From Paraspadella gotoi (lineage: Eukaryota; Animalia; Chaetognatha), in the NCBI GenBank assembly GCA_051294375.1, contig JBJCIZ010001164.1, positions 1 through 15,020 on the forward strand: 15,020 nucleotides of DNA, in the 5' to 3' direction. The notes below the pieces were generated by a model. It ran no database searches. It saw only the letters and a list, made by a program, of their open reading frames with translations, and was not told where the DNA came from. Made by a program: the position numbers and the translations under genes. This document shows, in pieces, positions 6,426-15,020 of this stretch (the first letter of the stretch is position 1; the number at the start of each line of letters is the position of its first letter).

Positions 6426-6604
6426 ATTTTTAAGGACATCGATGATGACAAGCTTTGAATATAAATTATAATTAATCTATAATTAATTAATTAATTATAA
6501 TCTATAATTAATTAATTAATCTATTAGATTAGATTAATTAATTAATCAATAATTAATTAATTATCGCTAGGCCAGATCCGACATTGTTTGCTCAAACTTG
6601 TTTT
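6426..6604 (+). mobile_element. DINE-1/HINE-like non-autonomous Helentron 3' fragment, copy A
   Basis: AAGGACATCGATG..., then a (TAAT)n array, then GCTAGGCCAGATCCGACATTGTTTGCTCAAACTTGTTTT. Homologous to 9545-9684 (direct) and 7277-7375 (inverted). The CTTGTTTT end resembles the DINE-1 3' end. Confidence 0.6.
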
Positions 6605-7276
6605 ATACTGAATTAGAAAAAAATGCTAATAGAGCAGACATTTTTAAATCAAATTTGAAACGTTTTTAAACTTTAACCCTTAAAATTCTTTACTAACTGG
6701 AACGCGTTTATCAAAATGCTCTCTCTATTACATTTTTACAAATGTTTTTAAGATTGTTCATCAAATTTTTAAATCAATATTATTGCAGTCGTTTAGGCCA
6801 TGCCAAACTCTCACTATTCAGTGTAGATTCATTGTAGCTCGAATTTACTTTACCTTTCATTTAACTGAAGATTTTTAATGACTGCTAAAACCAACTAGAG
6901 AAACAAGATTAATTGTTTTAATCCTTCCTTCTAAATTTGCCTTTACCGCTGTTTTAATTGCTTACCTAAAAATTTTTAACAACCAGATGAAAAAACAAAT
7001 CTATAGAAAATGTGTTTGTCTATTTACCGATTAAAAAAAATTAAAACAGAATTTTTTACATATAAATAAAAAAACTTTTTTTTTTCTTGGTTGATTACTT
7101 GCGTGATTTTATAATGTATTTCTCGATATATTAGCTCTTTAAACATCAATGATTATGCTCATTGTTAAGTTTGAATGACCTCCTCTAACCGCGATTCTTT
7201 TTTAGTCCTACCACCGAAGTTATGTATCTTTCCATCTTTTCTAATAGCTATAATAGTTACTTTTAATAAACCAAAT

Positions 7277-7375
7277 AAAAACAAGTTTGAGCAACACATG
7301 TCGTAACTGCCTACGAAAATTAATTAATTTAATTAAATCGATTAATTTAATTAATTCAAATAATCACTGATGTTT
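7277..7375 (-). mobile_element. DINE-1/HINE-like 3' fragment, copy C (inverted)
   Basis: AAAACAAGTTTGAGCAACACATGTCGTAACTGCCTACGAAAATTAATTAA... is the reverse complement of the copy A end and contains a small TCGTA/TACGA stem-loop. Confidence 0.6.
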
Positions 7376-8084: not shown

Positions 8085-8515
8085 CGGTCCGGTCGGCCGC
8101 CCCTCAATTTTGTCGGGCATTCACTTATACATGCCTAAGAACATCGAAATTAGGATAAAATTATGGCCAAAAAAAAAAAAACGATGATCCGTCCGTCCGG
8201 TCTGCTCGTCCATCCCACCTCTAGCAAAAAACTCTATTAATCATTTATGTTTAATTAATTAGTCAATAATTAATTAATCAGTCAATCAATTAATTATTAT
8301 ATCAATCAATTTATTATCTATTAATTAATATTCAATCAATCGATTTATTTATCAATTAATTAATTATTTAATCAATCAAGCAATCAAGTCAATCGTTATC
8401 GGCATTATTGTCGTCGTCGCCATCATCGTCGTTGCTTTTGTCATGGTAAGTGACGAAAAACAAACATTTTGGATCAAATTAATTAGTTTATTAATTTATT
8501 AATTAATTACCGCTA
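8085..8515 (+). mobile_element. DINE-1/HINE-like fragment: conserved block, GTCC microsatellite, then TAAT/CAAT array
   Basis: 8111-8228 matches 1-110 and is followed by an (A/C)ATTAAT-rich array at ~8235-8395. AATTAATTACCGCTA at ~8501-8515 resembles AATTAATTATCGCTA of copy A. Confidence 0.5.
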
Positions 8516-8738
8516 ATGATCGTGCGAGTGGAAATGAGTTTCAATGGAAAAAACAAAAGTCATATTTACTTGAAGAATTTTTACTTATATTTACTCATAA
8601 TTGAATAAAAATTGGATAGATAAATGAAAATGAAATTTTGTGTGTGGGTAGGAAACTATGAGATTAAGCTGGATATAAGTTTTTGATGGAATCGTAGGAG
8701 TGGAAAAGAGTTTAAAACAAAAAACCAAAAGGCACATT

Positions 8739-8914
8739 TATGTCAATTGTCCTAATTTTGTCAGTGGACCAAATTAAGCAAGTTAACCAAATTATGCCAG
8801 TTGACCAAATTATGCCAGTTGACCAAATTATGCCAGTTGACCAAATTATGTCACTTGACCAAATTACATCAATTGACCATATTATACCAATTGTCCAAAT
8901 TATGCCTGTTTACC
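8739..8914. repeat. 18-bp minisatellite, about 10 units, consensus TATGCCAGTTGACCAAAT
   Basis: Three perfect units at 8793-8846 with degenerate units on both sides; period is exactly 18 throughout. Confidence 0.97.
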
Positions 8915-8953: not shown

Positions 8954-8978
8954 NNNNNNNNNNNNNNNNNNNNNNNNN
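8954..8978. other. Assembly gap (25 N)
   Basis: Run of exactly 25 N. Confidence 0.99.
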
Positions 8979-9012: not shown

Positions 9013-9175
9013 CTCTTGCCAACTCGAGGGAAGCGGAGAATTCGATATTCCACTGCGTTGATGTCGTCCATCGTTTTCAGGCAATTATCTAAACCAAAAT
9101 CTAGAGACCCTATGCTATCTTATGAATCCGTCCGTGGTTAATAATCTGAACCGAACTGCCACCAAACACCAGCGC
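9013..9175 (+). repeat. Direct repeat copy 1 (partner at 14886-15020), upstream of the hairpin array and twister
   Basis: GCCAACTCGAGGG..GGAGAATTCGATATTCCAC.GCGTT.GATGTCGTCCATCGTTTT..GGCAATTATCTAAAC.AAATCTA is shared for ~90 bp; weaker gapped similarity continues to CAGCG(G)C. Confidence 0.85.
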
Positions 9176-9196: not shown

Positions 9197-9279
9197 CGAG
9201 CCATTGACGTGCTCGGAGGCACCAGTCATTCGCCTCCCGACCCAAAGGGTCGGGGTTTTCTAGCCCCGGTGGCCACACG
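9197..9279 (+). other. Array of abutting GC-rich hairpins upstream of the twister
   Basis: CGAGC/GCTCG (9197-9215), GGAGGC/GCCTCC (9215-9237), CCCGACCC-AAA-GGGTCGGG (9236-9254), GGGGT/GCCCC (9252-9267), GTGGCCAC palindrome. Confidence 0.55.
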
Positions 9280-9280
9280 C

Positions 9281-9363
9281 CTAGCAGTTACGAGGGACGG
9301 GGCGCTTAACCCGCCTGTAACATGGTGTTACAGGCCTGTTCCGAAGCTCAGGGAACTCGCTCG
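9281..9363 (+). ncRNA. Twister self-cleaving ribozyme, P5-type permutation, with minimal self-complementary P1
   Basis: P5 CTAGCAGTTAC (9281-9291) / GAACTCGCTCG (9353-9363), imperfect. P2 GAGG (9292-9295) / CCC (9310-9312), one base short. Conserved G9296-A9297. T1 CGG (9298-9300) pairs with loop CCG (9341-9343). P1 GGCGCT (9301-9306). Cleavage motif U9307|A9308-A9309. T2 GC (9313-9314) / GC (9346-9347). P3 CTGTAACA-TGG-TGTTACAG. P4 CCTG/CAGG enclosing T-TCCG-AA-GC-T (cf. canonical UCCC-AA-GC). Confidence 0.75.
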
Positions 9364-9544
9364 ATTGTTTGAACGGGTTCTTCAACTAACACATAACAAA
9401 ATTACTTATCTCGTGCATTGGTGAGCACCGACTCCAACACACAACCAGCAACAACAATAACTTTCAGGCGATATGCCTTCAACCTGGCGATGCCAATTTC
9501 CGCCCACAACACAGTGGAAAATATAAGTCATCATTTTTACTTTT

Positions 9545-9684
9545 ATTTTAAAGCGACATCAATATGATAGCTGTATATAAATTTATTATTAAATATTAAA
9601 ATTAATTAATTAATTAAATTATCGATTATTTAATTAATTAATTTTTTGTAGCAGACTCCGATAATGTTTGCTCAAACTGGTTTT
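9545..9684 (+). mobile_element. DINE-1/HINE-like 3' fragment, copy B
   Basis: AAGCGACATCAATATG..., then (TAAT)n, then GTAGCAGACTCCGATAATGTTTGCTCAAACTGGTTTT; homologous to 6426-6604. Confidence 0.6.
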
Positions 9685-10312
9685 TGTTGTATTCTTGTGC
9701 ACTTCGTTGCCCGATTTAAATCGATGTTAAAAACAAACCGCCTTGAAGTAGACAGTAATTATTGTTTGTGCTAGTAGACTAGAAACCATTCAATATAAGA
9801 GTATGTTACTGAGATCCAGACAGTGGATCCCTTATTAACCGCCGCGCTCTCAAGCTCGTATCCCTCTTAATTATATAATTTGCTAGTATGGGGGGGAGGG
9901 GACTAGGCGTGGCTAGAACCATCCAGACCTGGCGGTGTCTTGGCAGAGGATCTGACAGTTAGCCTTGCGCTCTCGGGCAAAACCCATGGTATGGAATGGC
10001 CCGCTGATCTAAGAATTCGAAGGAAACGCCTGTTTGTCGTGGAGTATTTAGCAAATATCCACCATCACCCCCTTCTCTCCAGTACACCCTGAGCCCTAGC
10101 ATTCGTAAAACTCCATTTATAATACAATAAAATGAATATCATAATAACTCAGCTATATAATATATTTATATATCCCCATGCCACCATCTTTCCAACGGTA
10201 AAACACATGTACTCACACTACACACTACTATCTCACCACCGCGACTTCTTGTTTAGTTCTGTTCAACCCACTAGATTGGTTTTCCGCGCTTAATTAATTC
10301 TTAGGGCCTCAC

Positions 10313-12831: not shown

Positions 12832-14885
12832 GTATGGGGTTTTTAATCCTGTTTTGTTGCTACCTTAACATTGGTAAGAGATAGAAGGGAAGAGATCACA
12901 AAATAAATTTATGAAAAACATGCCTAATGTTATAATTATTGTGAACGCTTACTGTCGAATCCTTTGCCTCAACATCTCGGGGGGTTCGGCGAGATTTCCG
13001 ACCGAAGGCTTCGTAGTGGATGCTAAATCTCGACCCTGGAGCCCCATAGAAAATAATAAACATTTTTTCTACACCTTACTTTAAAATTACTTTTTGTCTA
13101 TTTCAAAACTATTTGAAACGCTTTTAAGCGGCTAGAAATAAAGGAGCGGTGAGACACCGAGGGGGAAGAAGTTACGGATTTTGTAGCTCAATTTTTCCAT
13201 TTCTTGTCGAAAAGTCCTGTCAACTCTTCGTTTTAAACCACATTTCTGCATCCTTCTGCAAATCATTTTCCGTTGCCTCACTTCAAGCTAATCTTCCTGT
13301 AATAACATTTGATTTGCTTTGCCACATCAATTTTTCGCTCCCTTTGCCACTGCCTTGACACCTCTACTTGGCCATTTTTATTCCCATTCTTTTTTCCCTC
13401 CATCATCCCCATTTTTTTTCTCTCCCCGCCCACGTTCACTGGCGCGCCTGGAGTGGACGGGGGCGAAGGCCGCCCCTTTCGACAGCGGGCCGTCGCTAAA
13501 TTCCATTTTGCGAAAACAAAGAATTTGGAAAAATCCGAAAACAGATTTAGCGGCGCTGGTGAAAAAAAAGCGGAGGAAATTGAAGGCGTGATGAATAATG
13601 AAATATTGTGGAACCAGGAAAGAACGTTTAGTTTTCAGAAGTGATCGTCATCTTCCCCCCAAAAAAATTATTTTAAAATTAAAAAAAAAATAAATAAATA
13701 AAAAACTAATAGTAGGTTAGTTGACGCTTTCACCTTGGCAAAGGTCGACTTAAAATCCAATTTTTATATTGCAGAAAAAAATCTTCAAAATCTCTTTAAG
13801 TTTTAGTTTCGCGTTTCATTTATTTTTTTTTTTCCCGGGAATTGTTCCCCCCCCCTTCCCGTTTTTAAAAAAAATTTCGGAGGGATACTTGAATATTCAA
13901 GTTAATCAGTTAAATATGACGAAAAATTCATAGAGAAAAATAAAAATAGATAAGAGCGAATATATAATTATTCAAAAATTTGTGAGAAAAAAAAATGTGA
14001 TAGAAAATCAGCTCGGAATAATTTTTTTTTTTATGTAAAAAAAAAAAAAAAAGAAAACCAAAAAAAATTATTCCCTTTTTACGAAACTTCACTCCACTTC
14101 CTTTGTTAAATCTTATCTCTCACAATTCTTTCCTTTCCTCCTCACCCTCATTTCTTTTTATTCCTTCGTTCTTTTTTTTTTCCCCCCGGACTTCCTTGGC
14201 TCGCTATTTTTTCTTTTCCTCTCCTTTCCTTTCCTTCCTTCCTTCCCTCCCTCTTTCTTTCTATTCACAGATGGAAAAGAGGAACGGTTCGAGTTACGTT
14301 TTATCTGGAGACTCAAAAGACTCTCCTGCTGCAGCCGTCGTTCGTCGACATCCGTCTCTAAAGGTAAAGCCGCTCCGCAGCCGACGCGATCTTCCATTTC
14401 ACCTTTCACTAGTTTTGATAAAAATAAAAGATTTTCAATTCGACCTTCTTTTGAAATTCACTCTTTTTTTTTTTTTTTTCAAATTATACAATTTTTTAAA
14501 ACCAAAACGGTAATTCAAATTCTGAGTTGCGTCCGTGTAGTTCGACCACGCATACCATTTAGACCATATATATAAATATATATATAAACACATATATAAT
14601 AAATTGATGAATGACGAAGTATTCCCTAAGATGTTGAGATTTTTTTAACGTAAGTTGGACAGACCAACGAGAGACAGACAGAGTCAAAGAGAGAGAAAAT
14701 GAAAGCTAATTATTAAATGGTTGAATAAGAAAAAAAAAAACACGCTCACAGAAAAGTAAGTTTGCTAACAGACCAGCTCATCTTTCTTATTTTACGAATA
14801 ACTGTCACTAAACCAATTATAGAAATATTAATCAATCGCCTTTGAAACGTCCCTAACTATTAGACCAGCCATCCAAAACATACTC

Positions 14886-15020
14886 TCTCTGCCAACTCGA
14901 GGGGAAGGAGAATTCGATATTCCACGCGTTTGATGTCGTCCATCGTTTTGGCAATTATCTAAACAAATCTAAGGAGTATCATTATGGTGGACTAAAATCC
15001 ACCAACCATTCATCAGCGGC
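14886..15020 (+). repeat. Direct repeat copy 2 of 9013-9175, running off the window edge
   Basis: Offset is 5873 bp at GCCAACTCGAG (9018 vs 14891). Confidence 0.85.

Follow-up and report, generated by a model that had tools for sequence, protein, structure and literature searches.

The locus at 9292-9352 of a chaetognath contig (Paraspadella gotoi, JBJCIZ010001164.1) raises the question of whether a twister ribozyme of permuted, P5-type order is present in an animal assembly and, if so, how an RNA that has no P1 hairpin could cleave. The window analysed here is the whole stretch of 15,020 nucleotides. A type-P5 class of twisters was reportedly described by Roth et al. in 2014. The first-pass annotation of the window had placed all twister elements in permuted order at this locus. 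The core from P2' to P4' stood up at 9292-9352, and its strand order is that of type P5 (P5-open); the P1 hairpin did not, and the P5 stem is marginal. All conserved twister core bases (U/AA, GC, UCCNAAGC, and GA-NGG) lie at 9296-9347 in comparison with the Rfam consensus lines, and both pseudoknots can pair, T1 between CCG 9341-9343 and CGG 9298-9300, and T2 between GC 9313-9314 and GC 9346-9347 (Table 1). We could also reproduce the perfect 8-bp P3 stem and the P2 helix that is one base short (CCC facing GAGG, three pairs and the A9293 bulge versus the 4-bp norm), and the annotated cut site between 9307 and 9308 and G9296 both fall at conserved twister positions. Two features had gone unmentioned, the U9339.U9348 mismatch beside L4 and the palindromic linker that replaces P1. 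In twisters the general base is a conserved G (available text of PMC9901934 and PMC11662667), and G9296, which occupies the conserved position, is predicted to play this role. We conclude that 9292-9352 is almost certainly a twister-derived motif.

Table 1. Features of the candidate twister motif and its neighbourhood (positions are those of the window).
Feature	Position	Strand	Observation	Basis
Dispersed repeat	9013-9103 and 14885-14971	+	89% identical in a 93-column alignment with 6 gap openings	
Two GC-rich hairpins	9237-9269	+	just upstream of the motif	
Proposed P5	9283-9289 with 9354-9361	+	7 pairs, C9358 bulged, marginal	
P2' strand GAGG	9292-9295	+	three pairs with P2, A9293 bulged	sequence
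Conserved G-A	9296-9297	+	position agrees with Rfam twister-P1 and Twister-P5 consensus lines	
T1' CGG	9298-9300	+	complementary to CCG 9341-9343	sequence
Linker GGCGCU	9301-9306	+	6 nt, self-complementary, replaces the P1 hairpin; candidate dimer helix	
U/AA	9307-9309	+	predicted cut between 9307 and 9308; A9308 predicted general acid	sequence; available text of PMC8501958
P2 CCC	9310-9312	+	one base short of the 4-nt consensus	
T2 5' strand GC	9313-9314	+	pairs with GC 9346-9347	sequence
P3 hairpin	9315-9322/9326-9333	+	8 Watson-Crick pairs, 3-nt loop	
P4	9335-9338/9349-9352	+	4 pairs; G9334 precedes P4	
L4 UCCG-AA-GC	9340-9347	+	adjoined by the U9339.U9348 mismatch	
Competing hairpin	9352-9381	+	-12.7 kcal/mol, takes the P5 3' strand	
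Intron-like stretch GTGAG...TTTCAG	9421-9467	+	47 nt, ATG within a few bases after; candidate by sequence only	

A core descriptor in P5 order matched the window at this single locus, in two registers. The alternative register, with GAGGG at 9292-9296, was ruled out by a T1 mismatch and zero P2 pairs. A reading of the core in P1 order was likewise rejected, the downstream sequence offering no pairable P2' together with GA and CGG.

The form of the T1 pseudoknot, CCG/CGG, had been annotated as an unusual one, which it is not. It differs from the commonest form by one compensated pair, seen in a single copy of the motif. Type-P1 patterns gave at least 186 viral loci, 183 of which were parsed, and 79 unique twisters with P2=4 and P4>=3 remained among the matches listed; since the reference sets were built with 4-nt P2 patterns, they are silent on the frequency of a 3-nt P2. 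Among these listed natural phage type-P1 twisters the outer T1 pair is C:G in 35, A:U in 29, U:A in 11, G:C in 3, and C.U in 1, and the CCG/CGG form is found in three of the 79. Most T1 pairs of the rice twister Osa-1-4 can be swapped (PMC5113685), and its C27G/G47C double change has a relative activity of 0.86 (available part of the PMC5113685 supplement). Given the natural CCG/CGG forms and the activity of the rice double change, the T1 pairing supports a selected structure, yet it is not new. Some phage contigs carry two type-P1 twisters near each other (L191, at 61-110 and 620-684; L222; L223).

What sets the motif apart is the palindromic linker in place of P1; the pseudoknot is ordinary, and cutting is a prediction. 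A P1 hairpin is not possible in GGCGCU, as the pairs G9301.U9306 and G9302-C9305 would leave a loop of 2 nt. All six positions of the linker are self-complementary, with G.U at the ends, and the self-duplex has a calculated energy of -8.3 kcal/mol; 4-6% of random 6-mers are equally self-complementary. The linkers of natural P5 twisters (at least 120 viral loci) are 17-22 nt long and form hairpins of 4-9 bp in all six unique sequences among the matches listed. In a co-fold of two copies of 9292-9352, by a method without pseudoknots, the minimum-energy dimer was joined via the P3 arms, not the linker. Metazoan hammerheads with a helix III of 1-2 bp and a palindromic loop work as dimers, according to the available text of PMC4209133.

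We propose that two GGCGCU palindromes in a tandem transcript could pair into a 6-bp intermolecular P1. In each active site, P2', G9296, A9297, and T1' would then belong to the 5' half of one copy, and UAA, P2, T2, P3, and P4 to the 3' half of the other. With the general base supplied by G9296 and the general acid by A9308, the cut at U9307/A9308 would follow once the copies pair. Multimeric element RNA would thereby be cut into units, which has also been suggested for the minimal hammerheads that Penelope-like elements carry. Our preferred reading is that 9292-9352 is a worn or mis-assembled mobile-element twister in P5 order, which would cut at U9307/A9308 as a palindrome-paired dimer; we regard this reading as evenly poised. 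In our assessment, it would be favoured by the chance estimate, the incomplete pairing of the other P5-order core matches with CCG/CGG, the activity of the swapped T1 pair, the imperfections tolerated by twisters, the self-complementarity of the linker, the hammerhead precedent, and the repeat and intron-like context. Counted against it are the model misses, the 4-6% odds of such a palindrome, the co-fold through the P3 arms, the fold gap, the occupied T2 GC, the U.U mismatch and the sensitivity of P4 pair 4, the single copy, the want of an element protein, and the lack of a twister core at the sites inspected in the Naiad and Chlamys supplement text. A more specific version is rather doubtful: an obligate-dimer twister that would cut tandem transcripts only and would belong to a Penelope-like retroelement, lying within its pseudo-LTR and followed by a short intron of the 5'-UTR.

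The covariance models, a test named in the first-pass annotation, gave the motif no help. On the unpolished sequence, the Rfam scan returned no twister match in the window at E<=5, nor in a 251-nt segment at E<=10. In particular, the gathering threshold of the type-P5 family RF02684 (37.6 bits) was not reached by the motif, which gave no match at E<=10. As a control, the same tool matched seven of nine phage type-P1 candidates, including two CCG/CGG forms at 53.6 and 44.6 bits, and scored two bacterial type-P5 twisters at 41.7 and 28.4 bits. A bacterial type-P5 twister above the Rfam threshold, L368:1501-1562, has its middle T1 pair swapped. The Rfam P5 model begins at P2' and consists of an 8-bp P1 hairpin and a 4-bp P2, with no P3 and no P5 stem, and this architecture plausibly explains the miss. 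We also constructed two models of our own, R1 from 38 type-P1 3' halves and R2 from 6 type-P5 twisters. With R1, 9307-9352 headed the 11 matches at a non-significant 9.6 bits (E 0.15), and a chance locus (L006) scored higher, at 17.1 bits. R2 ranked the motif first of 8, again non-significantly (10.1 bits, E 0.27) and in a mis-aligned form; with this model a true Rfam member scored no more than 10.3 bits. Neither ranking counts as support for the motif.

To estimate how often such an arrangement is expected by chance, we used the window to train an order-2 Markov model and generated 59.0 Mb of sequence. This contained 21 core-only matches, one site being counted twice, and none of the 21 combined T1 with P2>=3, P4>=4, and P3>=8. 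The product of core matches and sampled pairing probabilities yields 1.5e-8 to 7.3e-8 expected matches this good per window, or 0.004 to 0.018 per 250,000 windows, a figure that is optimistic because the tolerances were set after the candidate had been seen.

Pattern searches of the viral, metagenome, and bacterial collections retrieved no relatives. None of the 42 bacterial loci with a P5-order core and CCG/CGG had P2=4 and P4=4 in the pattern scan; similarly, none of the nine viral and nine metagenome loci of this kind, inspected by eye, combined a paired P2 with a P4 adjoining L4. The P3-order pattern scan gave at least 120 loci, none of which, among the matches listed, had P2=4 and P4=4. 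One repeat, with copies at L132:430-485, L133:391-446, and L137:679-734 that are 90-98% identical, carries the core letters of a P5-order twister with CCG/CGG. Its P2 is fully pairable, a P4 adjoining L4 and a model match are lacking, and the repeat is either a chance occurrence or a further variant.

The assembled copy deviates from the twister norm at several positions. P4 consists of four pairs followed by U9339.U9348, which can be read as a closing mismatch or as two loop-end insertions. For the P4 closing pair of Osa-1-4, values of 0.12 for U.U, 0.48 for U-A, and 0.29 for U.G were obtained from the available part of the PMC5113685 supplement by a manual count of the columns in the matrix row, with two blank cells allowed for. 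The available text of PMC11662667, a survey of type-P1 twisters only with a supplement that lists thousands of twisters, describes L4 insertions at locations 1 and 9 as tolerated in natural twisters. In the same text, natural type-P1 twisters, about 94% of which were active among those assayed, tolerate bulges and deletions as well as an imperfect P1 or P2 and imperfections at most P4 positions. The sensitive spot is pair 4 of P4, where mean cleavage falls from 0.76 to 0.58 when the pair is imperfect.

The predicted folding of the copy is also unfavourable. The proposed P5 has an energy of -1.0 kcal/mol and a pair probability of at most 0.02, and the modelled stem probably does not form. The twister secondary structure has -16.3 kcal/mol versus -32.4 kcal/mol for the minimum-energy fold, a gap of 16.1; the gap of natural type-P1 twisters has a median of 3.9 and is 16 or more in one of the 79 among the matches listed, although these have another topology and the comparison is not like for like. 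For the 3' half that the two types have in common, the gap comes to 4.3 kcal/mol, and four of 54 natural type-P1 twisters have one as large. P3 can extend by two pairs, absorbing the T2 GC, which is free with a probability of 0.0004 (below 0.1 in 7 of 54 natural twisters). Because of the short P2, the U.U mismatch by L4, and the competing fold, the copy is more likely to be weak than fast, and we doubt that it cuts well or fast as assembled.

Some of these defects may originate in the assembly. The window contains two 25-N gaps, 111-135 and 8954-8978. The stretches 1-110 and 8111-8228 are duplicates, 89% identical with 8 gap openings, and the first copy adjoins the gap 111-135. The 8 and 6 gap openings in duplicates of about 100 nt, together with the two gaps, make indel errors plausible, and the short P2 and the P5 bulge could plausibly be read errors.

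The motif lies in a GC-rich island (GC 0.51 versus 0.32-0.37 on either side) that starts directly after the gap 8954-8978, and the second copy of 9013-9103 suggests that the island belongs to a dispersed repeat. As to pseudo-LTR-type copies, 9013-9103 is the sole part repeated within the window; its second copy lies about 5.9 kb away and lacks the ribozyme, and the gap hides the sequence 5' of 8979. An open frame (14857-15018, 54 codons or more) covers the copy at 14885-14971, runs off the window, and has no protein match. Upstream of the motif, 9237-9253 forms a GC-rich hairpin with a perfect stem; its loop is AAA, and GTTTTCT comes directly after it. This hairpin may resemble the end hairpins of the IS200/605 type; it has no exact match in the viral contigs. 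The intron-like stretch downstream is the only GTRAG...TTTCAG pair of 40-60 nt in the window, with about 0.002 expected per 200 nt for a pattern that was picked after the sequence had been seen, and its TTTCAG is presumably a nematode-type acceptor.

The reading frames upstream of the motif are broken, and one of them may resemble the terminal part of a GIY-YIG domain of the Penelope type. No reverse transcriptase, GIY-YIG, or other element protein was found in the short broken flanking frames with Pfam, NCBIfam, two protein collections, PDB sequences, and the ESM Atlas. In particular, Pfam gave 0/12 and 0/12, NCBIfam two weak matches (E about 0.1), three word-index searches no match, and the ESM Atlas a best value of 0.84, which is a lead only. 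The sole phmmer match of these frames, P0001, was rejected as a repeat-sum artefact. No tRNA gene was found. We consider it probable that the host of the motif is a mobile element of some kind.

In the available text of PMC8557442, the Penelope pseudo-LTR carries a 5'-UTR intron, and Naiads are without canonical hammerheads. The available supplement text of that paper on Naiad and Chlamys elements has no twister core at its 21 TCC-N-AAGC or 8 TAA-P2-GC sites, and the motif of the window does not occur in the Naiad part by exact short-motif searches, which line breaks and variant cores would escape. The literature search, which covered subscription papers thinly and other sources in part, returned neither a palindromic-P1 twister nor any twister from a Penelope-like element.

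Alternatively, the palindrome could be incidental and the RNA a P1-less monomer that cuts itself at U9307/A9308; the linker would then be a simple loop with no more than a single closing G.U pair. The available texts of PMC11662667 and PMC6154101 describe P1 as dispensable and its imperfections as tolerated without loss of cleavage, 10 of the 79 natural type-P1 twisters among the matches listed have fewer than three of three P1 pairs, and the palindrome itself could be a product of chance at the frequency given above. However, the data on a dispensable P1 come from open-ended type-P1 twisters, and a covalent connection of 6 nt between T1' and the cut is far below the 17-22 nt of all six natural P5 twisters among the matches listed; a self-cutting monomer seems unlikely to us. 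The short P2, the U.U mismatch by L4, the marginal P5, the T2 GC absorbed by P3, the 16 kcal/mol gap, and the broken frames upstream would all be consistent with a dead fossil, a real twister descendant, from a dimeric family or not, whose deviations are true mutations and which cuts in no form. Yet its core bases, both pseudoknots, and the 8-bp P3 are intact, natural type-P1 twisters mostly remain active (about 94%) and tolerate deletions and bulges (available text of PMC11662667), and the indels may be assembly errors; we consider a fossil quite unlikely.

The start of the island after a 25-N gap, its deviating GC content, and the origin of the retrieved P5 twisters from phage contigs and bacterial genomes would fit the joining of foreign DNA at 8954-8978, with a P5 twister of phage or bacterial type on it. 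This explanation is very improbable, as host-like sequence surrounds the second copy of part of the island at 14885-14971, the viral, metagenome, and bacterial collections contain no relative by pattern, and there was no prokaryotic protein match. The least probable explanation, and to us a scarcely credible one, is a chance arrangement of short motifs round an unrelated hairpin. No covariance model gave a significant score, and the descriptor was fitted after the fact; however, 16 fixed bases stand in order together with the T1, P2, P3, and P4 pairings, for which the expectation is 0.004-0.018 per 250,000 windows.

Compared with known systems, the motif shares with RF02684 (clan CL00120) the order P2', GA, T1', (P1), UAA, P2, GC, P4, UCCNAAGC, P4'; the model has no P5 stem either, and a P3 is present in three of six natural P5 twisters among the matches listed. 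It differs from RF02684 in having a 6-nt palindrome instead of the 8-bp P1, a 3-nt P2, and U.U by L4, as well as in its eukaryote-like surroundings and in giving no match to the model. The motif has the build of a twister and would act as one. Because it has no P1 hairpin and its model score stayed below the threshold, we assign the motif to the twister class as a variant and not to RF02684 as a member.

The animal retroelement twisters described in the available texts of PMC8501958 and PMC7761336 are of type P1 and lie at RTE 5' ends. The RTE/Perere-3 type-P1 twisters and the T-variants (RF03160; available text of PMC8501958) have the same core as the motif, whose P3 starts with CUGUA like that of the S. 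mansoni examples and of the consensus for RF03160. In contrast to the motif, whose catalytic G lies 5' of the cut, the RTE/Perere-3 twisters are open at P1 and have this G 3' of the cut in the available descriptions; the element must therefore supply both sides in the case of the motif. No RTE protein was found near the motif. A closer parallel in design is provided by the hammerheads of Penelope-like elements and animal retrozymes (available text of PMC4209133), in which a palindromic helix is likewise too short in the monomer and completion by a dimer has been proposed. These belong to another ribozyme class, and both the element and tandem copies are known there, whereas the motif is a single copy by sequence.

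If palindrome-paired cutting by the motif is true, a second ribozyme class has converged on the dimer-only design of the Penelope-type hammerheads, and both the animal lineage and the element would be ones not so far known to use twisters. It would also support tandem-dependent cutting as a need of the elements, as opposed to hammerheads that are mere passengers, a question left open in the available text of PMC8557442, and would point to a class of eukaryotic twisters missed by Rfam. For such a claim, one imperfect copy that is not assigned to an element makes a poor test case by itself.

Several other features of the window deserve mention. An AT-rich repeat is present in three copies, 9580-9688, 6499-6604, and 7274-7364 (inverted), in each of which a conserved tail (about 40 nt) comes after a TTAA-rich tract, and resembles the terminus of a small non-autonomous transposon. 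An 18-bp tandem repeat of 9.8 copies at 8738-8914 lies in an open frame and encodes a six-residue repeat. Finally, the minus strand of 611-1905 contains stop-free frames of 109-145 codons that are rich in P, T, S, and E and have no Pfam match; they are possibly one frameshifted gene.
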